In this document: positions 1,201 through 12,837 of the stretch, piece after piece | How positions within the stretch are numbered: the first letter of the stretch is position 1 | How the letters are laid out: every line of letters starts with the position of its first letter | Virus record (IMG/VR): IMGVR_UViG_643692022_000004 | Length of the DNA stretch: 12,837 bases | Reading direction: 5' to 3' (one strand) | Source: a virus | Taxonomy: Duplodnaviria > Heunggongvirae > Uroviricota > Caudoviricetes | Notes under the pieces: generated by a model | What the model was told of the DNA's origin: nothing | Database searches by the model: none | Seen by the model: only the letters and a program-made list of their open reading frames with translations | Program-made: the position numbers and the translations under genes

Positions 1201-1500
1201 CAGGAAAAAATTTTTTTTCGAAAGAACTGTTCACACTGTTCACCCTTTGATTTTCTCCTTTTATTTCATAGTGATAGGTGGTGAATAATGGGTGAAGGGT
1301 GAACATTCGATTCTTCACCTCCGGCATTCTGCCGGTGTGACTCATACCGGTGATTAATCCCCCGTACTGAAAATCGCACAGGGAGAAAAAAGTTTTTTTT
1401 GATTTGATTGTTCACACTGTTCACCTTTCATTTTTCTCTTTTAATTTCAGTGTGATAACGGGTGAACATACGGTGAAGGGTGAACAGTGGATTGTTCACC
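1201..1500. repeat. crr-like cis replication region: two ~120-bp direct repeats carrying TGTTCACC-type octamer iterons
   Basis: Unit 1 (~1201-1320) and unit 2 (~1381-1500) each begin with an A-run/T-run and contain tgttcaca, tgttcacc and inverted ggtgaaca copies (e.g. 1228-1244, 1298-1305, 1409-1425, 1461-1468, 1479-1486, 1493-1500). TGTTCACC is the recalled binding octamer of the P4 alpha C-terminal domain. Confidence 0.7.
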
Positions 1501-1518
1501 TTCGGGGAATTCAGGGAT

Positions 1519-1543
1519 AAAAAAAGACCGGCAGATGCCGGTC
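1519..1543 (-). terminator. Rho-independent terminator of the leftward operon, just after alpha
   Basis: On the minus strand a 7-bp stem GACCGGC/GCCGGTC (1526-1532 / 1537-1543) with a 4-nt loop is followed by a 7-T run (1519-1525), 8 nt after the alpha stop codon at 1551-1553. Confidence 0.55.
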
Positions 1544-1550
1544 AGGTGGG

Positions 1551-3884
1551 TCAGGCTGTTGCAGGGTCGTCACATTTTGGCAGCCAGTCGCCGTAGCTTT
1601 CCTCTTTCAGTGTCAGGTTGGTCTGTATCCCCTGTTTGGTATGGCGCTTCTCGTAATTCAGTCCGTATTCCTTCAGCATCACCGGCAGCCCCAGCCCGAA
1701 CATTTTCAGACTGAGTACATTCCGGTAGCCGTTTGCCTCCATGTAGGCCAGATAGGCGTGATAGAGGTATTTACGGTAATTACGCGGGATGATACTGGCG
1801 TTCCCCATATACATGCCGCTGGTCTGCGGCAGGGTTTCCAGATAGCCGATAAAATCAAACGTCGGGTCGGCATCCCGTTTGATGTTCAGTGCCTCGTCTG
1901 AGTTCTGCTGGGACTGAAGCAGTGACCGGGCGAGCATCGGGTCGCTGAACTTCTGCATCAGGTGACGCACGATGACCGCCAGCTCGCGGGTGATTTTGTC
2001 CTTAAGCTGCGGGTCGCGCTCCTGCGGGGCTATCTGTTCCGGGAAGTGAATAATCACCCGCCGGCGTGACACGCCGCCGCTGCGGTCGGTGAAGCGCATC
2101 GGGTTATTGTTCACGGCCAGAATCACCGCCGGGATGTGCGTGGAGTACGCATCCCGGTATTTCGGGTCAACGGACACTGCATCGCCGCCGGTGATGGCCT
2201 TGAGTCCGGCTCCGTCGCCGCTCCATTTTTCCTGGTCCGGCAGGCGTATCAGTGAGAAGCCAGTTAACGCGGCACGTTCACGCGGGGATTCCAGCGTCTC
2301 AATGGTGGCCGACGTGGCGTTATCCTCACCGGCCAGCAGGGTGGCTATTTCGGCCATGATACTTTTGCCGCTGCCGCCGGGACCGGTCACCTCCAGAAAG
2401 AGCTGCCAGTCGTAGCGGTTTGCCAGCACCATAAACAGTGCGGCCAGAATCACGTCGCGTTTTTCCGCACGACCACCGGCAGCACGGTCAAGCCAGCGCC
2501 AGAACGCGGGAGCGTGGGTTTCCAGCGTTTCACCGTCCACCGGCGGGGTGAAATCCACATCACACAGGGTACGCATCCAGTGTGACGGACTGTGCGGGTG
2601 GAACGTACCGTTCTGCGTGTCGAGCACGCCGTTACGAAAGCCAATCAGGCGGCGGGAGGGGGCTTCCTGCTGCGGAATAATCAGCTTCAGGGTGTCCACC
2701 ACGGAGGCCACCTTCCCGGAGGAGAATGGCGCGCGCAGACGCTGAAACAGCCCGGCCACATCCCGGGCAAAGTCCTGTGGCGGCAGCACCTTCCAGACAC
2801 CATTTTCATAGCGGGACAGAAGCTGGCCGTTGGCATCGACCGCGAGCGCCTCGCCGTAATGCTCATAGATACGCATGGCCTTTTCGCTGGTACTCATGGC
2901 GGAAAACTCCGCTTCGCTCATGGTGTCGAACGGGCTTTCAGCCGGTGGCCGGATGGCATCATAAATGGCCTTACGGGTGGCCTCCCCGCCGTACTGCGTG
3001 AAGGCATCATTCCAGTCACCGAAGACCGGCGGCAGGGCAACAACACCTTCACACGCATCTGCGGCTGCGGCGGCTTTTTTCTGGCCGTCACCGCTGAGGT
3101 CACGGTCAGCGGCAAGGACAATCTGACAGGCGGGGTGCTTCTGCCGGGCAAGGCTGGCCAGAGAAAGGAGGTTCACGGAAGAAAGCGCCACCATCACCGT
3201 TTCACCGGTCAGGTGATGCACGGTAAGTGCGGTCGCGTATCCCTCCGCTATCCACAGACGTTTTCCGGCCTGATTCTGTCCTTCAAGGATGTGACAGGTG
3301 CCCCTGACCTGTCCGCCTTTCAGGGTGCGCTTACGGCCGTCAGCACTGATTAACTGAAGGTTAACCAGTTCGCCGCGGTCGTCATACAGTGGCACCACAA
3401 GGTCACCGGCGCGCCAGCTCACGCCACCGGCTCTGTGTGTGCCGGTCAGCATCCGGCATTCCCGGCCGGGAAAGCCCTTGCGGGTCAGGTAGGCGTTACC
3501 GGTTCCGGGACGGGTTTTCGCCATCAGGGTTTGTGCCAGTGCGGCGGCGTTCTTCCGGGCAGCGTCTGTTTCAGCAACAGCGGCGGTCGTCACTGCCGGG
3601 TCAGCCGGGGGCAGGCTGCCGGTCACGGCAGCCACCTTTGCGGCCGCATCGGACGGGGAAACACCAAACACCTTTTCAACCAGTTTCAGGCCGTCACCGG
3701 CACCACACTGATTGCAGTACCAGGTGCCGCGCCCCTCCCTGTCATCAAAACGGAAGCGGTCACTCCCGCCACAGACCGGACAGGGCTGATGACGGTTCTT
3801 CAGCACCTGAATCCCCAGCGCCGGGAGGATACGCGGCCAGTGGCCGAGTGCATGGCTGACGGTGGCGGTTACGTTCATTTTCAT
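1551..3884 (-). CDS. alpha: P4 alpha-type primase-helicase (777 aa)
   Basis: ATG at 3884 with AAGGAG RBS. N-terminal zinc-binding primase motif CPVCGGSDRFRFDDREGRGTWYCNQCG, Walker A VTGPGGSGKS of a D5/SF3-type helicase, and length matching the recalled 777 aa of P4 alpha. Flanked by its cognate octamer iterons. Confidence 0.95.
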   Translation of the reverse strand: MKMNVTATVSHALGHWPRILPALGIQVLKNRHQPCPVCGGSDRFRFDDREGRGTWYCNQCGAGDGLKLVEKVFGVSPSDAAAKVAAVTGSLPPADPAVTTAAVAETDAARKNAAALAQTLMAKTRPGTGNAYLTRKGFPGRECRMLTGTHRAGGVSWRAGDLVVPLYDDRGELVNLQLISADGRKRTLKGGQVRGTCHILEGQNQAGKRLWIAEGYATALTVHHLTGETVMVALSSVNLLSLASLARQKHPACQIVLAADRDLSGDGQKKAAAAADACEGVVALPPVFGDWNDAFTQYGGEATRKAIYDAIRPPAESPFDTMSEAEFSAMSTSEKAMRIYEHYGEALAVDANGQLLSRYENGVWKVLPPQDFARDVAGLFQRLRAPFSSGKVASVVDTLKLIIPQQEAPSRRLIGFRNGVLDTQNGTFHPHSPSHWMRTLCDVDFTPPVDGETLETHAPAFWRWLDRAAGGRAEKRDVILAALFMVLANRYDWQLFLEVTGPGGSGKSIMAEIATLLAGEDNATSATIETLESPRERAALTGFSLIRLPDQEKWSGDGAGLKAITGGDAVSVDPKYRDAYSTHIPAVILAVNNNPMRFTDRSGGVSRRRVIIHFPEQIAPQERDPQLKDKITRELAVIVRHLMQKFSDPMLARSLLQSQQNSDEALNIKRDADPTFDFIGYLETLPQTSGMYMGNASIIPRNYRKYLYHAYLAYMEANGYRNVLSLKMFGLGLPVMLKEYGLNYEKRHTKQGIQTNLTLKEESYGDWLPKCDDPATA

Positions 3885-3898
3885 GGTGTTGTTCTCCT

Positions 3899-4219
3899 TC
3901 AGTGCAGTACCGGCGCTTTTATGTGACGGGCACAGAGTTCATCCATCACAACCAGCCCGAGAAAGGACAGCGACGGCGCGGCCTTCAGGGGGCCGGATTC
4001 CATTAAATCTTCCAGCAGGGCACAGGCTATCTGACGCCCTTTTTCCTCACCGTGCTGGTGCAGATAAAAGCCTTCCAGCTCAGCGGCGATGGCCGCCTCC
4101 AGTGACTCAAGGGTGAGATGCGGGTAGCGGTGCTGACGTTCGCACACGGTCAGCCAGGCACAGGCGACAGCGCGACGGTAAAGGGCAGCGCGTAAGACGG
4201 GCGGTAAGGGGGTTTTCAT
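3899..4219 (-). CDS. P4 orf106-like hypothetical protein (106 aa)
   Basis: ORF of the length and position of P4 orf106, between orf151 and alpha; its stop (3899-3901) overlaps the alpha RBS. Function unknown. Confidence 0.7.
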
Positions 4220-4354
4220 TTGTTTTCCTCCCTGTGACAGATGACTGCATTCCGTGCCGGTTGCATTAACTGATAAGGCATATCTGCGTCTCCTGAAGAC
4301 GTGCGTATCCCTGCGCGAATACGCACATTTAATTTTTCGGGTGTCGTTTTTTAA

Positions 4355-4810
4355 TTACAGATAATTGCGGTAACTGTTATCCGGGGTGATTTCCGGGTCA
4401 GGCTCCGTGCGGGGAATTTCCCGCCATTCCCGCGCCACCGGTGCCGCCCGGCTGACCGGAACAGGGTCCTGCGGGTAAATATCCAGATATTTCTCCCGCC
4501 ATTTCTGTAATTCCGGGTCTCCGGCCATTTCTTTCAGTACCGCATGCCGGTTTACGGGGCTGCGTTTAAACAGGTCAGGACGGTCACAGGTAAATTCCCG
4601 CAGAAAACGCCCCAGCGGGATGTCTGTGGTGCGCCCGTCAGCGAGGATACGCACAAGGATACTGAATTTACGGCGGTACGGGTTCCAGACAATGTCCGGG
4701 CAGCGGTACGGCATTTCCCACGGAATACCGTCTTCCAGAATGCCGACCACGGCCACATCGGGAAAACCGGCAGAACGGTAAATCTCACCAGGCTGGGGAA
4801 AATCAAACAT
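4355..4810 (-). CDS. P4 orf151-like hypothetical protein (151 aa)
   Basis: ORF of the length and position of P4 orf151; its ATG (4810-4808) overlaps the epsilon stop (4803-4805), suggesting translational coupling. Confidence 0.7.
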   Translation of the reverse strand: MFDFPQPGEIYRSAGFPDVAVVGILEDGIPWEMPYRCPDIVWNPYRRKFSILVRILADGRTTDIPLGRFLREFTCDRPDLFKRSPVNRHAVLKEMAGDPELQKWREKYLDIYPQDPVPVSRAAPVAREWREIPRTEPDPEITPDNSYRNYL

Positions 4811-5090
4811 GCGTCCTGTCTCCCCGGTCTTTCTGCTGGGCGAGAAAATCGCGGCACAGGCCTTTGGCTTTCAGCTCATTCAGCACAAAATCAATATCTT
4901 CATTCAGGTAGCTGAAAATATGCGGAATGTAGAGCTGATGCAGGCCGGAGAGTTCACGGTGAATCAAATCACCCCCAACAAACTGGGATACGGCGCTGGC
5001 GCGGTTGAGCTTATGGTAAGCCTCAATGCTGAGGTGTTCACGGGCGTCATGACGCGCTGAGACGGTCTGAGGGGCTTTTTTATTACGCAC
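4803..5090 (-). CDS. epsilon: Epsilon-like protein (95 aa; P4 anti-repressor that derepresses the helper prophage)
   Basis: Position immediately downstream of the immunity region and upstream of orf151/alpha, as in P4. The start appears to be GTG (5090-5088) preceded by a G-rich RBS. Identity rests on synteny and size, not on a recalled sequence. Confidence 0.6.
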
Positions 5091-5283
5091 GGGACACCCC
5101 CATCACTGGCAGACGGGCAGCAAGGGAGAGCACATAGTCACGGACAAGGGAACGGCGGGCGCTGCGTTCATCACCGGCGACGGTGCGAAGCATGCAGATA
5201 CGGGGATGACGGTCTGCGCGACGGACAGCCGCAAACACAAAGACAAATTCAGGGTGTGAAGGGGTAAGGGTTGTAGCCATGAT

Positions 5284-5402
5284 GGCAGCCTCCGTTAGAT
5301 AGCAGGTTACGCTATCGCCGGAGTTTCCACGCTCGATGGCGATAGCCCAGACGGGGGTGGAAATACCGGCTCTAACGGATACCGGCCAGCCCGGAGGCTG
5401 CC
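5284..5402 (-). ncRNA. Candidate CI-like immunity RNA (structured RNA in the P4 immunity region)
   Basis: Perfect 11-bp long-range inverted repeat ggcagcctccg (5284-5294) / cggaggctgcc (5392-5402) enclosing a perfect 9-bp hairpin gctatcgcc (5311-5319) / ggcgatagc (5338-5346). The locus lies between vis and epsilon where P4 encodes the CI RNA. Exact ends are uncertain. Confidence 0.3.
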
Positions 5403-5528
5403 CCGCCTGAGCTACCATTGACTCTGCGGCATAATGAGCGGACGCGGGCAGGATGCACGGAGTGCCATCTGCTCGACTGACCACACACCACACCATAATC
5501 TGGCGCTCTGTGGCGTTGATTGCGACAC

Positions 5529-5550
5529 AAAAAAAGACGCATGGCGCGTC
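5529..5550 (-). terminator. Candidate attenuator/terminator hairpin in the leader between the early promoter and the CI-like RNA
   Basis: On the minus strand the stem GACGC/GCGTC (5546-5550 / 5536-5540) with loop GCCAT is followed by a 7-T run (5529-5535). The stem is short, so the call is weak. Confidence 0.35.
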
Positions 5551-5613
5551 ATATGTCGCCGTTAGATTGCTCGGGTTTCCACGCCCGGCTGCCGATTTTG
5601 CGACAGCGGAAAA

Positions 5614-5643
5614 ACTATATCCGCAAATGCCGGAAAAAGGCAA
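5614..5643 (-). promoter_or_regulatory. Candidate sigma70 promoter (PLE-like) downstream of vis
   Basis: On the minus strand TTGCCT (5643-5638), an 18-bp spacer, then TATAGT (5619-5614), directed toward the immunity region and epsilon. Hexamer match by eye only. Confidence 0.25.
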
Positions 5644-5678
5644 GCCAGAAAAAGGGAGTTTTTGCAGAGCGGGCATCA

Positions 5679-5945
5679 TCATGCGTCGTACCCCCGTTTG
5701 CGTCCGGCAATGCGCCCGGCCATCCATGCGGTGACTTCAGAGTGCAGCCAGGCCACATTTTTACCGCCAAGACTCACCTGCGGCGGAAATTCCCCCTTAC
5801 GGATGAGTTCATAGATGGTCGAGCGTGACAGGCCGCACAGGTGCATCACTTCCGGAAGACGTAAAAAACGCTCCTGTGTGATGTCCGGCAGCGGCATCAG
5901 TGGCGTCACAGGGGCGGGAGACGGGGAAGAAAAAACAGCTTGCAT
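5679..5945 (-). CDS. vis: Vis-like excisionase/transcriptional regulator (88 aa; AlpA/Xis-type helix-turn-helix)
   Basis: 88-aa ORF with a GAGG RBS. Contains the AlpA/Vis-type motif [45 protein letters not shown]. Same size and position as P4 orf88 (vis) between the late promoter region and the immunity region. Confidence 0.8.
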
Positions 5946-6090
5946 CGGGCTACCTCGTTAATGTCCATACAGCACCGGATAAGTCCGTCCGGCTTCGGGT
6001 AGCGCTTTATTTTGTGAATATTTTCAGCAGACGCAACAGGGGGGATTTGTTCCGGCAGCCTTACAATGCTTGTGTATTTTTTGTTCATCT

Positions 6091-6120
6091 CCACTTAAAG
6101 TCATTTAAAGCCACTTAAAG
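6091..6120. promoter_or_regulatory. Three phased 10-bp direct repeats upstream of vis (candidate Vis/PLL operator)
   Basis: ccacttaaag / tcatttaaag / ccacttaaag are exactly contiguous with 10-bp periodicity, about 150 bp upstream of the vis start codon. Confidence 0.3.
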
Positions 6121-6224
6121 CAATTCGTAATTTTTATAGTGAAATACAAATCGTTTTTTCTTATTCATTCCCGGCGAATTAATAAAAACAAACAGTAATA
6201 AACAGCACAAAAAGCCCATCAACG

Positions 6225-6328
6225 GGTGAACAGTGGTGAACAGACGGTGAACAGTCATTACTGCGATTGTTCACCCTTTAACTTACTGTATTACTTATCT
6301 TTTTTCTTATGGTGAACAGAGGTGAACA
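6225..6328. repeat. ori-like replication origin: cluster of six GGTGAACA/TGTTCACC octamer iterons
   Basis: ggtgaaca at 6225-6232, 6235-6242, 6246-6253, 6311-6318, 6321-6328 and tgttcacc at 6268-6275, followed by an A/T-rich stretch (6331-6350). Same octamer as in crr, and located between vis and sid as in P4. Confidence 0.65.
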
Positions 6329-6408
6329 GTAAAATATAAAAAAAATAAACAGTAAGCCGTTTTTTCCAGCGACCTTTTCCTGGCTTGCCGGTGTGAGGAT
6401 GAGTCTCC

Positions 6409-6426
6409 TGTGTCAGGGCTGGCACA
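6409..6426 (+). promoter_or_regulatory. Psid-type late promoter activator site (TGT-N12-ACA dyad for Delta/Ogr-family activators)
   Basis: TGTgtcagggctggcACA, centred roughly 80 bp upstream of the sid ATG, consistent with the recalled P2/P4 late-promoter architecture (dyad centred near -55). Confidence 0.5.
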
Positions 6427-6498
6427 TCTGCAATGCGTCGTGTTGTTGTCCGGTGTACGTCACAATTTTCTCAACCTGAAGTGACGAGGAGCCGGAAA

Positions 6499-7233
6499 AT
6501 GTCTGACAACACCATCCCTGAATATCTGCAACCCGCACTGGCACAACTGGAAAAGGCCAGAGCCGCCCACCTTGAGAACGCCCGACTGATGGATGAGACC
6601 GTCACGGCCATTGAACGGGCAGAGCAGGAAAAAAATGCGCTGGCGCAGGCCGACGGAAACGACGCTGACGACTGGCGCACGGCCTTTCGTGCAGCCGGTG
6701 GTGTCCTGAGCGACGAGCTGAAACAGCGCCACATTGAGCGCGTGGCACGCCGGGAGCTGGTACAGGAATATGACAATCTGGCCGTGGTGCTGAATTTCGA
6801 ACGTGAACGCCTGAAAGGGGCGTGTGACAGCACGGCCACCGCCTACCGGAAGGCACATCATCACCTTCTGAGTCTGTATGCAGAGCATGAGCTGGAACAC
6901 GCCCTGAATGAAACCTGTGAGGCGCTTGTCCGGGCAATGCATCTGAGCATTCTGGTACAGGAAAATCCGCTCGCCAACACCACCGGCCATCAGGGCTACG
7001 TCGCACCGGAAAAGGCTGTCATGCAGCAGGTGAAATCATCGCTGGAACAGAAAATTAAACAGATGCAAATCAGCCTCACCGGCGAGCCGGTTCTCCGGCT
7101 GACCGGACTGTCAGCGGCAACACTTCCTCACATGGATTATGAGGTGGCAGGCACACCGGCACAGCGCAAGGTGTGGCAGGACAAAATAGACCAGCAGGGA
7201 GCAGTGCTTAAGGCCAGAGGACTGCTGTCATGA
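6499..7233 (+). CDS. sid: Sid-like capsid size determination (external scaffold) protein (244 aa)
   Basis: ATG at 6499 preceded by AGGAG (6486-6490); the track ORF begins 66 nt further upstream but lacks an RBS. The product starts MSDNTIPEYL and is 244 aa, the recalled length of P4 Sid. First gene of the sid-delta-psu operon. Confidence 0.85.
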   Translation: MSDNTIPEYLQPALAQLEKARAAHLENARLMDETVTAIERAEQEKNALAQADGNDADDWRTAFRAAGGVLSDELKQRHIERVARRELVQEYDNLAVVLNFERERLKGACDSTATAYRKAHHHLLSLYAEHELEHALNETCEALVRAMHLSILVQENPLANTTGHQGYVAPEKAVMQQVKSSLEQKIKQMQISLTGEPVLRLTGLSAATLPHMDYEVAGTPAQRKVWQDKIDQQGAVLKARGLLS

Positions 7234-7730
7234 TTTACTGCCCGTCGTGTGGACATGTTGCTCACACCCGCCGCGCACATTTCATGGACGATGGCACCAA
7301 GATAATGATTGCACAGTGCCGGAATATTTATTGCTCTGCGACATTTGAAGCGAGTGAAAGCTTTTTCTCTGACAGTAAAGATTCAGGAATGGAATACATT
7401 TCAGGCAAACAGAGATACCGCGATTCACTGACGTCAGCCTCCGGCAGTATGAAACGCCCGAAAAGAATGCTTGTTACCGGATATTGTTGTCGGAGATGTA
7501 AAGGCCTTGCACTGTCAAGAACATCGCGGCGTCTGTCTCAGGAAGTCACCGAGCGTTTTTATGTGTGCACGGATCCGGGCTGTGGTCTGGTGTTTAAAAC
7601 GCTTCAGACCATCAACCGCTTCATTGTCCGCCCGGTCACGCCGGACGAACTGGCAGAAATCCTGCATGAAAAACAGGAACTGCCGCCAGTACGCTTAAAA
7701 ACACAATCATATTCGCTGCGTCTGGAATGA
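7230..7730 (+). CDS. delta: Delta-like late transcriptional activator (166 aa, tandem Ogr-type zinc-finger domains)
   Basis: Start overlaps the sid stop (ATGA at 7230-7233). Two Cys4 modules: CPSCGH...CRNIYC and CRRCKG...CTDPGC. Length equals the recalled 166 aa of P4 Delta. Confidence 0.9.
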   Translation: MIYCPSCGHVAHTRRAHFMDDGTKIMIAQCRNIYCSATFEASESFFSDSKDSGMEYISGKQRYRDSLTSASGSMKRPKRMLVTGYCCRRCKGLALSRTSRRLSQEVTERFYVCTDPGCGLVFKTLQTINRFIVRPVTPDELAEILHEKQELPPVRLKTQSYSLRLE

Positions 7731-7803
7731 GGGCTGCCGGTTAACACCGGCCGTCGCCGCACACCGTATTTTTATTCTTCACCATGATGAGAAAGAGATA
7801 ACG

Positions 7804-8376
7804 ATGGAAAGCACAGCCTTACAGCAGGCCTTTGACACCTGTCAGAATAACAAAGCAGCATGGCTGCAACGCAAAAATGAGCTGGCTGCGGCCGAACAGG
7901 AATATCTGCGGCTTCTGTCCGGGGAAGGCAGAAACGTCAGTCGCCTGGACGAATTACGCAATATTATCGAAGTCAGAAAATGGCAGGTGAATCAGGCTGC
8001 CGGTCGTTATATTCGTTCGCATGAAGCCGTTCAGCACATCAGCATCCGCGACCGGCTGAATGATTTTATGCAGCAGCACGGCACAGCACTGGCGGCCACA
8101 CTGGCACCGGAGCTGATGGGCTACAGTGAGCTGACGGCCATTGCCCGAAACTGTGCCATACAGCGTGCCACAGATGCCCTGCGTGAAGCCCTTCTGTCCT
8201 GGCTTGCGAAGGGGGAAAAAATTAATTATTCCGCACAGGATAGCGACATTTTAACGACCATCGGATTCAGGCCTGACGCGGCTTCGGTGGATGACAGCCG
8301 TGAAAAATTCACTCCTGCGCAGAACATGATTTTTTCGCGTAAAAGTGCGCAACTGGCATCACATCAGTCTGTGTAA
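7804..8376 (+). CDS. psu: Psu-like polarity suppression / capsid decoration protein (190 aa)
   Basis: 190-aa ORF starting MESTALQQAFDTCQNN, matching my recollection of P4 Psu in sequence start and length; last gene before cos. Confidence 0.9.
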   Translation: MESTALQQAFDTCQNNKAAWLQRKNELAAAEQEYLRLLSGEGRNVSRLDELRNIIEVRKWQVNQAAGRYIRSHEAVQHISIRDRLNDFMQQHGTALAATLAPELMGYSELTAIARNCAIQRATDALREALLSWLAKGEKINYSAQDSDILTTIGFRPDAASVDDSREKFTPAQNMIFSRKSAQLASHQSV

Positions 8377-8411
8377 AACTCCCCGAAAATCCGCCCGTTT
8401 TTACTGAAAAA

Positions 8412-8450
8412 AGCCATGCATCGATAAGGTGCATGGCTTTGCATGCGTTT
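8412..8450 (+). terminator. Candidate terminator of the late operon
   Basis: 8-bp stem AGCCATGC/GCATGGCT (8412-8419 / 8431-8438) followed by a T-containing tail (ttgcatgcgtttt), about 35 nt after the psu stop. Confidence 0.4.
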
Positions 8451-8540
8451 TCCTGCCTCATTTTCTGCAAACCGCGCCATTCCCGGCGCGGTCTGAGCGT
8501 GTCAGTGCAACTGCATTAAAACCGCCCCGCAAAGCGGGCG

Positions 8541-8559
8541 GGCGAGGCGGGGAAAGCAC
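8541..8559. other. cos site (P2/P4-type 19-nt cohesive end)
   Basis: GGCGAGGCGGGGAAAGCAC matches the P2/P4 cohesive-end sequence as I recall it; preceded by a GC-rich hairpin CCGCCCCGC-aaa-GCGGGCGG (8522-8543). Confidence 0.65.
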
Positions 8560-8575
8560 TGCGCGCTTAAGTATA

Positions 8576-11026
8576 TTATTGTTTTGCACTTAAAATATTA
8601 TCAACAACTCGTTTCACACTTTCGAAAGATGACTCTCCTGTTTTAAAAGATTCGTTCATGTCAAAATAACTAGGTTTATTTACAAAACTACTCCAAGCAT
8701 TTGACAGGTAATCTTTGAATGCAATGGAGCGTTTATATCGATCCTCAATATTGAATGACTCACATGAAGCTCGCATATTATTGACTACTTCAGGATTAAA
8801 TATAGGAGTGTCAAATACCATTGCATCAAGATAGGCGAAATCACTTATCCATCGCTTGAGATGATACAAACCAATAGATGTGATTCTAAATTTCGTTGGC
8901 ATTTCTCCTATTAAACCTGTTTCGTCCTCTTCAAATGTAAACCTCTGTGAGGTCTCTATTAATTTTTTGTTTGTCGTTCTTCTTAGCGCATTTTCAGTCT
9001 GCTCAGGAATAAAACCAAGGCTTTGCATTTCATCTATAATGGACTTGGTTAGACAGAATCCATCCCGGTCCTGAAGCTCTTTTTTTTCTGATAATAGCGC
9101 CATTATTAATGGTACTAAAAAGTGTTCTGATATATCTGCAAAAGAAACATCAAAAATATTCATGGCAAGAGATGTGTTTGGATCAAAGTGTGAATATTCA
9201 CCAAGTAAAGCTTGTTTAGAAAATTCATGTACAGGAATTATATATCTACCTTCTTCTTCGTAAGTTCGAATTATTTTATCCGCTTCAACATTTGGGCTGC
9301 CTATAAAACCAGTAATAAAGCTAAGCGCTTGTCTTACATTGCCTCCCGTAATGTTTTCAATAAACTCTCCTAGTGATTTATTTTTTCTTAGAGATTGAAG
9401 CAATACTCTGATAAATGAAGAAAGATTGTCTATATGGATTCTAACAAATTCGGCATGTTCAAGAGGTATCTTTCCTTCAGACATTTCGAGAGCAAACTGA
9501 AGTCGTTTATCAAGAACTTGATCTATCCTTGGTGGTGCAATTGTAAAGACCTTGTGGGGATAAGCAGTTAATGCACCTGATGCTTTTGATTTAAAGAATG
9601 TCTGAGGTCTGACAGATATAAATACTAAAGCATTCCAATCTTTTGCTAACTCCTGAGAAATAACAAATGCTCGCTGTTGCGTTTCGAAATCTCGTTGATC
9701 AGCATTATCTAGACAAATAATTACTTGCTTTTTAGTTTGTTTTGATAAATGAGCGATTGAGTTTTTTAAATGTTCATCTTTAGCATCTAATTTTTCCGCC
9801 AACATCTCAAGTTGTTTTTCCTCATATCGTTCTCTATTTGAATCTCGTAAACTCCCCCAGATTCCTTTTGAAAACCTTTGAATATCTCTTGAATATACGC
9901 CTTTAACAAATTTCATTTCGGTTATATCACAGGAGTATTTATTGTCTAGTTGTTGCTCTATCTCATTTAATATAAATTTTTGAAGATTATTAGCTAATGT
10001 TGCTTTAGAGCCTAAATCTATATATAAATAAATTGCCTCTTTAAATTCTTTGAATGCACTTGAATAAATTAAATTTTTTACAAATGACGTTTTACCAACA
10101 CCAACATCACCAATTAATACAATTGGACGCTTTGATAGAGCCTCGGCCATAATACTTGGATCTAAAGTTTGCTCTTTACGATCAGGTTTAACAGAAGTTA
10201 TATGTGGAGATAATTCATTGTCACTAAATAGAGCAGCATATCTGGCTTGAAGCATTTCTTTACTTAGCAAAGCATATTTTGAAAGGGCACCACTTTCGCA
10301 GTAGCATTTTTGGTAAAAAATCTCTTCAATTTCATTGCTTTCAAGAGCATCTTGAATTATTAATTCTGATATTTGTCTTAATGAGGTCTGTATATCACTA
10401 GCATAGCGTATTTTAGGATACATTGATAAATAGGTTGATAATTTATTTGGAATACCACTTATGTCAGAGGTAAGATACTTAATTAAACGTTGTTCTTTCA
10501 CACCGTAATATGAAAGCATATTCCATGCTAAAGAAAAGTTCCGTAATAAAGAATCCAAACTGTCAAAAACTAAAGCTTTTCCCTCTAAAGGCGAACAGCC
10601 ATTTTGAGTGCTTGCAATAAATGATATAAATTGATGTCCATTAGTGGCTATTGCAATTGGTGTTCCTCGTGATGAACAATATTTTTGTACCTGTATAATT
10701 GCGTCTTTTAAATCGTCATTTGATCTTAAGAGAGTTGGTATGTCGATTATGTTCTTATTTGATAAACCTGCTGGTATTTCAAAAGTCCGGCCTTCTCTTT
10801 TCGCTTCAACAATAACTTGCCGTGGCTTTCCTAATTCATAATCTGTAAAAGTATGATCATGATAGTTTTCAACTTCTATTTGATCATCAGGCCAGCTAAG
10901 AACGTCAATAATTATTTTGTTTATTATATGATGCCTAGTCTGGGCTTCATTTCTTATCTTGGCGCTGTCACTATATTCGTTTACTAATTCTCTTAATAAA
11001 TTTTCGGCTTGTATCATTGTAACCAT
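8576..11026 (-). CDS. Candidate anti-phage defence protein: N-terminal PD-(D/E)xK nuclease (HsdR-N/Mrr-like) fused to a P-loop NTPase with a C-terminal domain of unknown function (816 aa)
   Basis: Uninterrupted 816-codon ORF, ATG at 11026 with GGAGAG RBS 7 nt upstream. Residues ~26-76: NEAQTRHHIINKII...IEVE...DYEL...VIVEAKREG, the E/D/ExK pattern of HsdR-N/Mrr-type nucleases. Walker A GDVGVGKTS (~306-314), extended Walker B VIICLDNADQ (~435-444), and GGNVRQAL (~561-568) resembling an AAA+/STAND sensor motif. No SF2 helicase motifs. Sits in the P4 psu/cos-int slot; strongly AT-rich against a GC-rich backbone. Confidence 0.85.
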   Translation of the reverse strand: MVTMIQAENLLRELVNEYSDSAKIRNEAQTRHHIINKIIIDVLSWPDDQIEVENYHDHTFTDYELGKPRQVIVEAKREGRTFEIPAGLSNKNIIDIPTLLRSNDDLKDAIIQVQKYCSSRGTPIAIATNGHQFISFIASTQNGCSPLEGKALVFDSLDSLLRNFSLAWNMLSYYGVKEQRLIKYLTSDISGIPNKLSTYLSMYPKIRYASDIQTSLRQISELIIQDALESNEIEEIFYQKCYCESGALSKYALLSKEMLQARYAALFSDNELSPHITSVKPDRKEQTLDPSIMAEALSKRPIVLIGDVGVGKTSFVKNLIYSSAFKEFKEAIYLYIDLGSKATLANNLQKFILNEIEQQLDNKYSCDITEMKFVKGVYSRDIQRFSKGIWGSLRDSNRERYEEKQLEMLAEKLDAKDEHLKNSIAHLSKQTKKQVIICLDNADQRDFETQQRAFVISQELAKDWNALVFISVRPQTFFKSKASGALTAYPHKVFTIAPPRIDQVLDKRLQFALEMSEGKIPLEHAEFVRIHIDNLSSFIRVLLQSLRKNKSLGEFIENITGGNVRQALSFITGFIGSPNVEADKIIRTYEEEGRYIIPVHEFSKQALLGEYSHFDPNTSLAMNIFDVSFADISEHFLVPLIMALLSEKKELQDRDGFCLTKSIIDEMQSLGFIPEQTENALRRTTNKKLIETSQRFTFEEDETGLIGEMPTKFRITSIGLYHLKRWISDFAYLDAMVFDTPIFNPEVVNNMRASCESFNIEDRYKRSIAFKDYLSNAWSSFVNKPSYFDMNESFKTGESSFESVKRVVDNILSAKQ

Positions 11027-11049
11027 CGAAAACTCTCCAAATGAAAAAA

Positions 11050-12249
11050 TTAAAAGGATAAAGATTTATGAACAAAAGAACTCCACCAGTTCATTAAATT
11101 CTTCCTTTGTTCTAAGTAAGTAGAACGGTTATAAGCTTTTCTGACTTCATTCTTATCGCTATGAGCTAAGGCTGATTCTATTACATCAGCGTTAAATTCG
11201 GCTTCATTCATTGCAGTGCTGGCAATAGAACGTAAACCATGAGCAACGAGTTTTCCACCATATCCTATCCTTTTTAAAGCGGCATTTGCAGTTTGGCTAT
11301 TCATGGGTTTTTGTGGATCATTTCTACTTGGGAAAACATACTCACGATGAGCACTAATAGTTTTCATAACTTCAAGAATATCTAAAGCCTTAGGTGATAA
11401 AGGTACAATATGTTCGCGCTTAGCTTTCATCCTTTCAGCAGGAATTCTCCAGAGTTTTGCATCAAAATCGATCTCCTTCCATTGAGTGCCTGAAGCCTCT
11501 GAAGGGCGCACAAGGGTGAGTAGTTGCCATTCAATCAGACAACGGGTCTGCACAGAAAGATTTGACATAGATAAAGAATACATAAGTTTCGGTAATTCTT
11601 CAGGTCGTAGTGTTGGCATGTTTTTCTTTTTAGGTTTCTCAAATGCCATACCAATACCTGATGCAGGATTAGCGTCAATTAAGCCAGTATTAACGGCATA
11701 AATCATAATTTCATTAATACGTTGTACCAAACGACGAACAGTTTCAAGTGCTCCACGAGCTTTAATTGGTTCTAAGGTTTCAATTAATGTACGAGCTTTT
11801 ATTTTCTGAACAGGAATTTCACCGATAGTAGGGAAAATATCTCTCTCTAAGGAGCGCCATACATCCTTTGCGTAATCAGGTGTTACGTTGTTTCTTTTTA
11901 TGGCAAACCATTTTGAGGCAACGTTTGAAAAAATACTATCTTCCGCAATCTGTTGCTGTACAGTGACTTGCTCACTGTATATCTGTGGATCAATACCTCG
12001 GGCCAGCAAGGAAAGATACTCAGCACGAGTGTTTCTGGCTTCAGCCAGAGAAAGGGCAGGGAAAGACCCTAAACCAATCATGGTTCGTTGTTTTGTTACT
12101 GGTTTCTGGTATCGGAAACGCCACAGCTTCCTACCGTTCGTTTTTACGAGTAGAAAAAGTCCATTACCATCATGTAGCGTTAGATCCTTTGCAGTTGCTT
12201 TAGCCCGTGATAGTTCAGTGTTAGTAAGAGGGCGTGTTGTACGTGACAC
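11050..12249 (-). CDS. int: Tyrosine integrase (P4-family, 399 aa), ssrA-specific
   Basis: N-terminus typical of P4-family integrases (...RPLTNTELSRAKA...LHDGNGLFLLVKTNGRKLWRFRY...), C-terminal catalytic region with HGLR and a tyrosine in KAYNRSTY. Apparent GTG start at 12249 with a GAGGT RBS. Directly adjacent to the ssrA 3' end. Confidence 0.9.
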   Translation of the reverse strand: MSRTTRPLTNTELSRAKATAKDLTLHDGNGLFLLVKTNGRKLWRFRYQKPVTKQRTMIGLGSFPALSLAEARNTRAEYLSLLARGIDPQIYSEQVTVQQQIAEDSIFSNVASKWFAIKRNNVTPDYAKDVWRSLERDIFPTIGEIPVQKIKARTLIETLEPIKARGALETVRRLVQRINEIMIYAVNTGLIDANPASGIGMAFEKPKKKNMPTLRPEELPKLMYSLSMSNLSVQTRCLIEWQLLTLVRPSEASGTQWKEIDFDAKLWRIPAERMKAKREHIVPLSPKALDILEVMKTISAHREYVFPSRNDPQKPMNSQTANAALKRIGYGGKLVAHGLRSIASTAMNEAEFNADVIESALAHSDKNEVRKAYNRSTYLEQRKNLMNWWSSFVHKSLSF

Positions 12250-12271
12250 GATTATCCTACCTCAGAGAGAA

Positions 12272-12323
12272 TTGGTATACGCTTTTAGGTATACATCTTA
12301 CCGTATACCTAAACGTATACCAA
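12272..12323. promoter_or_regulatory. Cluster of four arm-type integrase-binding-like repeats between int and the att core
   Basis: ttggtatacg (12272-12281), aggtatac (12287-12294), cgtatacct (12302-12310), cgtataccaa (12314-12323): two motifs in inverted then direct orientation, and the same pair recurs at 1120-1141. Overlaps the expected int promoter. Confidence 0.4.
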
Positions 12324-12367
12324 TAATCACTGGATTTAGCGGGATATTCTCGGACAACTGCGGACAC

Positions 12368-12386
12368 AAAAAAGCCCACAGGGCTT
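12368..12386 (-). terminator. Rho-independent terminator downstream of ssrA, supplied by the element
   Basis: On the minus strand AGCCC-tgt-GGGCT is followed by a 6-T run (12368-12373), about 50 nt beyond the tmRNA 3' CCA end. Confidence 0.5.
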
Positions 12387-12435
12387 GTGCCATGCGGGCT
12401 TTCAGGATTTTTCCGGACATATCCGGAAGAGCAAG

Positions 12436-12798
12436 TGGTGGAGCTGGCGGGAGTTGAACCCGCGTCCGAAATTCCTACATCCTCGGTACTACATGCTTAG
12501 TCAGTCTTTACATTCGCTTGCCAGCTGCGGACGGACACGCCACTAACAAACTAGCCTGATTAAGTTTTAACGCTTCAACCCCAGGCAGGGCTTCCACGCG
12601 ATCTCTTTTGGGTTTGACCTCTCTTGATCCCCGTCCTAAGAGCGGAGGCTAGGGAGAGAGGGCTCTAAGCAGGTTATTAAGCTGCTAAAGCGTAGTTTTC
12701 GTCGTTTGCGACTATTTTTTGCGGCTTTTTACGAGGCCAACCGCCCCTCGGCATGCACCTTGGGTTTCGCAAATCCCGTCGAATCCAGAATCAGCCCC
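12436..12798 (-). ncRNA. ssrA: tmRNA (transfer-messenger RNA)
   Basis: Reverse complement begins GGGGCTGATTCTGGATTCGACGGG and ends ...GGTTCAACTCCCGCCAGCTCCACCA; contains the tag reading frame GCAAACGACGAAAACTACGCTTTAGCAGCTTAA (ANDENYALAA). 363 nt, matching E. coli ssrA as recalled. Confidence 0.95.
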
Positions 12799-12837
12799 AA
12801 TGTGTAACAGTAAGTATACCAGATTTATGAGCGCCAT

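Follow-up and report, generated by a model that had tools for sequence, protein, structure and literature searches.

A small, ordinary hairpin in the delta–psu spacer of a P4-type satellite prophage

The hairpin between delta and psu in the P4-type satellite prophage studied here is real and ordinary, and its sequence is the same in P4 itself, in which dyad symmetry at this place was marked in 1984. We analysed it within a stretch of viral DNA of 12,837 nt (the window), on which an earlier, sequence-only reading had placed the hairpin slightly wrongly and had suggested that it could be a partial attenuator, or an RNA-processing or stability element that sets psu expression relative to sid and delta. 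The explanation that we favour, at somewhat less than even confidence, is that it is a stem-loop through which RNA polymerase reads and which has little or no regulatory role.

A perfect hairpin in the delta–psu spacer

Positions 6300–8600 of the window are 98.4% identical to P4 over 97% of their length, and Rfam places C4 and isrK, the immunity RNAs of P4, at 5335–5607. The genes of the late operon, sid (to 7233), delta and psu, lie next to one another on one strand, the plus strand, to which the junction features described below also belong. The delta gene (7230–7730) is an open reading frame for a protein of 166 aa with two fused Ogr/Delta zinc-finger domains; it ends in a TGA at 7728–7730 and is 98–99% identical to P4 delta. 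The psu gene (7804–8376) encodes a protein of 190 aa that matches the Pfam family Psu (PF07455, 1.5e-88) and is 98% identical to that of P4. Together with the identity to P4, the PF07455 match and two Pfam Ogr_Delta matches bear out the earlier naming of the flanking genes as delta and psu.

An exact match and folding both locate the core hairpin, GCCGGT-TAAC-ACCGGC, at 7736–7751, where the 16-mer GCCGGTTAACACCGGC occurs as a single copy in the window. As had been described, the stem is a perfect one of 6 bp, with a 4-nt loop; five of its six pairs are G-C. It had been assigned to 7737–7752, 7 nt from the delta stop; it actually lies one base further left, 5 nt (7731–7735) past the TGA, and is 52 nt ahead of the psu ATG at 7804, close to the earlier estimate of about 50 nt. 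Beyond a 1x1 U/C mismatch, three additional pairs (G7732-C7755, G7733-U7754 and C7734-G7753) lengthen the stem, giving an extended stem-loop of nine pairs at 7732–7755 whose 5′ arm starts 1 nt past the delta stop and whose folding energy is −14.2 kcal/mol, as compared with −9.1 kcal/mol for the 16-mer. Compared with shuffled versions of itself, the 26-nt hairpin segment is more stable (z = −3.0), and the predicted probabilities of the core pairs are 0.5–0.99 in contexts of 321 and 621 nt.

Comparison with the P4 junction, which the sequence-only reading had proposed, showed the whole hairpin to be identical in both P4 records (X51522, at about 10820–10835, and X02534); the P4 and window spacers differ at one of 73 positions, 7782. 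The 1984 record, X02534, annotates two ‘imperfect regions of dyad symmetry’ over the junction, equivalent to 7696–7774 and 7743–7770 of the window, whereas the perfect 6-bp stem itself carries no annotation in either record.

Transcription probably continues past the hairpin

We scanned positions 6000–9000 for intrinsic terminators, which we defined as a G+C-rich stem of at least five pairs with a U-tract (at least five T in eight) 0–2 nt past the stem. The delta–psu hairpin has such a stem, with six perfect pairs that can be extended to nine, but the scan called no site there, as no U-tract lies within that distance. The nearest T-run, TATTTTTATT, begins at 7767, 15 nt past the 6-bp stem and 11 nt past the extended stem, in agreement with the earlier observation that no clean T-run follows. 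Between the extended stem and the T-run lies a C-rich linker of 11 nt, GCCGCACACCG (7756–7766), which is polymorphic at 7759 and 7760. The canonical intrinsic mechanism does not tolerate 11–15 nt between stem and U-tract; the linker therefore rules it out, and we rejected an intrinsic terminator at this place. A 52-aa open reading frame lies on the minus strand at 7604–7762; a terminator reading on that strand was set aside, as no T-run follows there.

Since no U-tract abuts the stem, RNA polymerase would be expected to read through the delta–psu stem-loop, and the most likely end of late-operon transcription is a hairpin with a T-rich tail beyond psu. That terminator-like hairpin, AGCCATGCA-N9-TGCATGGCT followed by TTTGCATGCGTTTT (8412–8438; −18.2 kcal/mol in a hairpin scan), lies 36 nt past the psu stop and about 70 nt ahead of cos (8506–8567), and is flanked by an A-run and the T-rich tail (8412–8452). 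It is likely to be the real end of the late operon, and the simple terminator scan missed it because of its 9-nt loop and interrupted T-run.

Other known kinds of element were also considered for the delta–psu hairpin. At the gathering threshold, Rfam matched only the tmRNA, C4 and isrK in the window, all of them elsewhere, and a permissive Rfam scan of 7600–7900 returned only a chance match (E = 5.9); with no covariance-model match, a known RNA family was rejected. A late promoter dependent on Delta or Ogr has a TGT-N12-ACA operator about 55 bp upstream of the start site. Eight such sequences occur in the window, the nearest at 6409–6426 and 6447–6464, near the start of sid, and none lies near 7700–7800. 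Given the lack of an operator, and of a plus-strand promoter-like site nearby, we rejected an internal Delta/Ogr-dependent or sigma-70 promoter for psu. The sequence TTAACA at the loop and TATTTT at 7767 do not constitute a promoter, because they are 20 nt apart, which is too far.

CCGG sites and the chance occurrence of small hairpins

The hairpin exceeds chance expectation only weakly. Perfect 6-bp hairpins number 49 in the window, against 20.9 in dinucleotide shuffles, and those with at least five G-C pairs number 16, against 1.9. Eight 26-nt segments on the plus strand of the window fold at −14.2 kcal/mol or below, about one per 1.6 kb, so a spacer of 73 nt would hold one by chance in about 6% of cases. 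The surplus of small G-C hairpins arises from an enrichment of CCGG in the P4 core (1300–8600; 7.3 kb, 55.5% G+C): because CCGG is self-complementary, nearby copies always form a G-C stem. The core contains 101 CCGG sites, 2.3 times the mononucleotide expectation, and the enrichment covers all three codon phases; neighbouring CCGG sites are 7–14 nt apart in 23 cases, and GCCGGT or ACCGGC occurs in 32 copies, where 5.8 +/- 2.3 are expected. The accessory part of the window (8601–12837; 37% G+C) has four CCGG sites and no enrichment. The delta–psu hairpin consists of two CCGG sites 10 nt apart, each one pair longer per side, and its origin in the CCGG-crowded P4 core would most simply be compositional.

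The two hexamers of the hairpin also occur in reverse order at 1526–1543, as GACCGGC-AGAT-GCCGGTC with AAAAAAA before it. This second hairpin lies just downstream of the alpha gene, which is on the minus strand, and is probably the alpha terminator, read on that strand.

Natural variation in the hairpin

A scan of IMG/VR with anchors placed outside the spacer yielded 71 independent P4-type junctions, comprising nine haplotypes. The perfect stem (−14.2 kcal/mol) is present in 46 of these. A further 21 have lost the closing T-A pair through A7746C (20 junctions; −13.1 kcal/mol) or A7746T (one junction), which leaves a 5-bp stem and a 6-nt loop; two have C7737T, giving a G.U pair (−11.5 kcal/mol), and two have G7749A, giving a strongly destabilising C.A mismatch (−8.0 kcal/mol). 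A stem pair is thus broken or turned into a wobble in 25 of the 71 junctions, and the change is compensated in none. When the extended stem was compared across ten haplotypes, six of its nine pairs were invariant, two were broken in some haplotypes and one had become G.U; none of the nine had changed on both sides, at a divergence that is low (at least 95% identity). Missing covariation says little here, because the sample represents one young clade.

Three of the 16 positions of the core hairpin are variable, as are about five of 50 other spacer positions; in a similar sample, delta and psu vary at 58 of 358 third codon positions. The segment 7766–7796 is nearly invariant across the 71 junctions. 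Stability is largely kept, with 67 junctions at −13.1 kcal/mol or better and 69 at −11.5 kcal/mol or better. The same variants are common in E. coli: a scan with 60-mers found the junction in 930 of 5,426 complete genomes, and exact 60-mer matches show the perfect stem in 633 genomes and A7746C in 231, about a quarter of the carriers. Judged from these alignments, the full stem shows no sign of purifying selection and appears to vary at about the rate of synonymous sites; weak selection for stability would give the same pattern of variants.

These data bear directly on the possibility that the hairpin is a functional element of mRNA stability or processing that sets the ratio of Psu to Sid and Delta, which we consider unlikely. 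The AU-rich tract at 7767–7780 might be cleaved, with the stem guarding the 3′ end of the sid–delta message, or cleavage might occur upstream, with the stem guarding the 5′ end of the psu mRNA. Such a role would suit a stable stem that begins 1 nt past a stop codon and is followed by an AU-rich tract prone to be single-stranded, that has predicted pair probabilities of up to 0.99, and whose common variants keep at least −11.5 kcal/mol, with no indel in the stem in any of the 71 junctions. Intercistronic stem-loops such as the REP hairpins of malEFG act as barriers to 3′-exonucleases in polycistronic mRNAs, and the P4 hairpin resembles them in being stable, in lying between cistrons that are probably needed in unequal amounts and in having an AU-rich tract next to it. 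Unlike REP hairpins, it is single and small, and is found only at the delta–psu junction. The 60-mer occurs at 1,074 places in the 930 E. coli genomes, with a median of one per genome, which is not the pattern of a REP or BIME; among the 12 matches listed, 11 lie beneath an ogr/Delta-like gene and one is in a truncated element. The stem positions are conserved no better than third codon positions and show no compensated change, and elements with near-identical sid and psu genes lack the hairpin, as described below. The hairpin may still have a modest effect on the stability of the mRNA.

The spacer is part of an exchangeable delta cassette

We searched for Psu in one genome per species and obtained 39 loci. 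A delta of 166 aa with a 73-nt spacer was found only in the P4-type locus (L007). Nearly all loci from other genera that have a recognisable delta-like reading frame upstream combine a delta of 72–81 aa with a spacer of 14–28 nt, and the spacers of the approximately 35 other psu-bearing species, also 14–28 nt, hold only a Shine-Dalgarno sequence and are too short for the hairpin. These other P4-like satellites share the gene order sid–delta–psu with the P4 type, but have a tight junction of the form TAA-TCAGGAGA-N6-10-GTG/ATG, with a strong Shine-Dalgarno sequence and no hairpin, whereas the P4-type junction has 73 nt and the hairpin, and combines a weak Shine-Dalgarno sequence with a U-rich leader. 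The tight junctions and their strong Shine-Dalgarno sequences suggest translational coupling. The hairpin was not found at the same position in diverged relatives, where a conserved structured RNA would be sought. A diverged two-domain Delta was found neither among 5.8 billion proteins (word-indexed search) nor among 1.84 billion representatives (exhaustive HMMER search).

E. coli XH992 (locus L003) carries an element whose Sid and Psu are 98% and about 97% identical to those of the window, yet whose delta encodes 81 aa and is followed by a 23-nt spacer without the hairpin. At the DNA level, identity to the window is lost exactly where sid stops and delta starts, and returns around position 7819, close to psu codon 5. 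Delta and the spacer can therefore be exchanged as a cassette, in which the hairpin accompanies the fused delta. This cassette spans about 7233–7818 in the window and 1729–2009 in L003; the version with the short delta and 23-nt spacer occurs in 154 E. coli genomes. We conclude that the 73-nt untranslated spacer is restricted to the P4 clade, as part of a swappable fused-delta cassette.

Two possible derivations of coding sequence in the spacer were tried. That it descends from the 3′ end of a short delta gene that has decayed (a ‘YSSP’ read-through frame; ACCGGCCGTCGCC aligned with ACCGGCTGTTGTC by MAFFT) was unsupported: local alignments of the spacer with 12 short-delta tails did not score above shuffles (z −0.7 to 2.0, p 0.05–0.84). 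Extension of Delta by stop-codon read-through (GLPVNTGRRRTPYFYSSP*) was rejected, because the polymorphisms in that extension are mostly non-synonymous.

Deletion variants were also seen at the junction. In one element (L132, 1501–2352; protein P0020), delta codon 70 is fused in frame, by way of the spacer, to psu, and the two parts meet at about 7735/7736. In another (L131, 2495–2505), a fragment of the alpha (primase) gene is joined at 7741|7742, so that the 5′ arm of the hairpin is lost. The two deletions, which are independent, each have an endpoint within the hairpin, and may have involved CCGG microhomology or an instability of the palindrome. Such endpoints, and the nearness of a cassette boundary, could be taken to mean that the hairpin acts at the DNA level, as a protein-binding inverted repeat or as a recombination or deletion hot spot at the edge of the cassette. 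We find this very improbable. The right boundary of the cassette, at about 7819, lies within psu and not at the hairpin; the half-site GCCGGT is so frequent in the core (32 copies) that it is not a specific operator; TGT-N12-ACA is absent there; and two deletions can be coincidence or the product of CCGG microhomology.

The psu leader

Downstream of the hairpin, folding predicts that the U-rich tract TATTTTTATTCTTC (7767–7780) pairs with the psu Shine-Dalgarno region. The latter is a purine-rich, Shine-Dalgarno-like sequence, GAAAGAGA (7791–7798), 5 nt ahead of the ATG; it is invariant in the 71 junctions and has an unpaired probability of 0.01–0.29 in two contexts. The U-rich tract is invariant in 70 of the 71, the exception being a variant in the length of the T-run, and its unpaired probability is also low. 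The predicted pairing joins 7767–7780 with 7790–7800, and the isolated structure (7762–7806) is weak, at −7.4 kcal/mol with z = −1.2. As far as such folding predictions go, this pairing is a better candidate than the hairpin for control of psu translation. The only spacer position at which the window departs from P4, the C at 7782, falls in the predicted loop between the two paired segments; it is private to the window, as P4 and all 71 IMG/VR junctions have G. A mini-ORF at 7784–7801, ATG ATG AGA AAG AGA TAA (MMRKR*), overlaps the psu Shine-Dalgarno region and ends 2 nt before the psu ATG; this five-codon frame has no Shine-Dalgarno sequence of its own and may be coincidental.

Psu is an established inhibitor of Rho (PMC3737525, PMC11718236), and the spacer might accordingly be a control point at which Rho acts on C-rich untranslated RNA, with the hairpin as a pause. 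Because Psu inhibits Rho, psu expression would then be self-reinforcing. The segment 7745–7783 contains approximately 17 C and 7 G, and it is only in the P4-type lineage that delta and psu are translationally uncoupled. However, the C-rich stretch of about 40 nt is far below the length of typical rut regions, and predicted structures would tie up half of the spacer; we regard a Rho-related role as scarcely probable.

Hairpins after delta in relatives that lack psu

Four single-domain Deltas (P0032, P0037, P0040 and P0046) align with domain 2 of P4 Delta through its ...RLE* tail, at 36–45% identity. They are encoded, as the last late gene, in P4-like elements that have no psu and in which they are preceded by a Sid-like protein (28–32% identity to the Sid of P4) and by one or two further Ogr_Delta genes. 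In one such element (L120, 2278–2767), two adjacent genes are colinear with residues 1–70 (41%) and 84–166 (45%) of P4 Delta. Because its domains align colinearly with two separate adjacent genes, P4 Delta looks like a fusion of two neighbouring genes and not a recent internal duplication. Separate adjacent or overlapping Ogr_Delta genes also occur at L123 (2093–2755) and L126 (2099–2755), and some relatives have three. Scans of IMG/VR with P0032 and P0037 gave no match.

The psu-less relatives have hairpins of −17 to −22 kcal/mol located 4–10 nt past the stop of the delta gene that encodes the RLE tail. These are followed by immediate T-runs, and were called as terminators by the scan, in L123–125, L128–129 and L130, that is, in three of five lineages; cos lies 190–300 nt beyond the hairpin. 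The hairpin of P4 therefore occupies the position of a terminator in the nearest delta lineage, a hint that its past may have been a transcriptional one. Like the psu-less terminators (L120–L130), it is a G+C-rich stem-loop a few nt past an ...RLE delta stop. It differs from them in being weaker (−14 as against −17 to −22 kcal/mol), in having no U-tract within 0–2 nt, and in what lies downstream, which in P4 is another gene and in the psu-less elements is cos and the defence hotspot. Sequence homology of the two was rejected: we found no sequence similarity between the P4 spacer and the terminator regions after the psu-less delta2 genes, with alignment limited to cos.

The earlier suggestion of a partial attenuator thus fares unevenly, in that the location of the hairpin matches that of a terminator in the nearest delta lineage whereas its U-tract is not within 2 nt of the stem. 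In its fuller form, the suggestion would be that the hairpin is a disarmed or residual attenuator, derived from or replacing the intrinsic terminator that psu-less relatives have behind their RLE-tail delta, and that the 11-nt gap makes it leaky, so that less psu is transcribed. The tail shared by domain 2 of P4 Delta and the last-gene, single-domain Deltas fits this, as do the strong hairpins with immediate T-runs in some psu-less elements and the fact that a T-run does occur in P4, at 7767. Yet the P4 spacer resembles none of the psu-less terminator regions, a gap of 11–15 nt is unfit for the canonical mechanism, the terminator scan was negative, and the predicted partner of the U-tract is the psu Shine-Dalgarno region. 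Moreover, the psu-less clade, known from Serratia and Yersinia, is said on the basis of a published phylogeny to have lost psu (PMC8628076), and its terminators may for that reason be secondary. We consider a residual attenuator improbable.

A more elaborate scheme is also conceivable, as a long shot. The spacer would be an evolutionary seam, at which the terminator of a psu-less ‘sid-delta1-delta2’ late operon was disarmed, its U-tract having shifted by 11 nt, when the delta genes fused and psu was joined; the leftover stem and the pairing of the U-tract with the Shine-Dalgarno region would together be a tunable attenuator or translational gate that doses Psu, possibly with feedback through Rho.

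Discussion

We return to the reading that we favour, that of a stem-loop which polymerase passes and which has little or no regulatory role. The 5′ arm of the stem starts 1 nt past the TGA, so on late mRNA the stem would form once the ribosome leaves the delta stop and not before, the arm presumably being occluded until then. The present role of the stem is probably small or nil; at most, it would be a passive barrier to 3′-exonucleases or structural punctuation between the delta and psu cistrons, while psu, having an AU-rich leader and a Shine-Dalgarno sequence of its own, would be translated independently.

On its own, the hairpin matters little. Should the stem modulate psu expression after all, it would add to the examples of phage operons that are tuned between cistrons, and would have a bearing on the dosing by P4 of Psu, which is both a Rho inhibitor and a capsid-decoration protein. 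Two other findings are more useful: that the hairpin-bearing spacer belongs to a delta cassette exchanged between near-identical sid and psu genes, and that psu-less relatives have, as the counterpart of the two-domain Delta of P4, a pair of separate neighbouring genes. E. coli holds two natural alternatives, the short delta with a tight junction and the fused delta with the 73-nt spacer and hairpin, which lend themselves to a direct comparison of Psu:Delta output.

The accessory region of the window

The integration site of P4 itself is a leucine tRNA gene. The element in the window instead adjoins ssrA, the tmRNA gene (12436–12798; 295.8 bits), which lies beside a gene for a tyrosine integrase of 399 aa. 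Because this site contrasts with a late region that is 98% identical to P4, the integrase/att module (11050–12798) is probably mosaic relative to P4. An open reading frame of 816 aa (8576–11026, minus strand; 33% G+C) lies in the interval from cos to the integrase, which is known as a hotspot for defence genes in P4-like satellites (PMC9122126). It gives only a weak match to the P-loop ATPase family AAA_22 (2e-6) and a marginal PADLOC match to mad8 (2.5e-4), and is possibly an uncharacterised defence gene.
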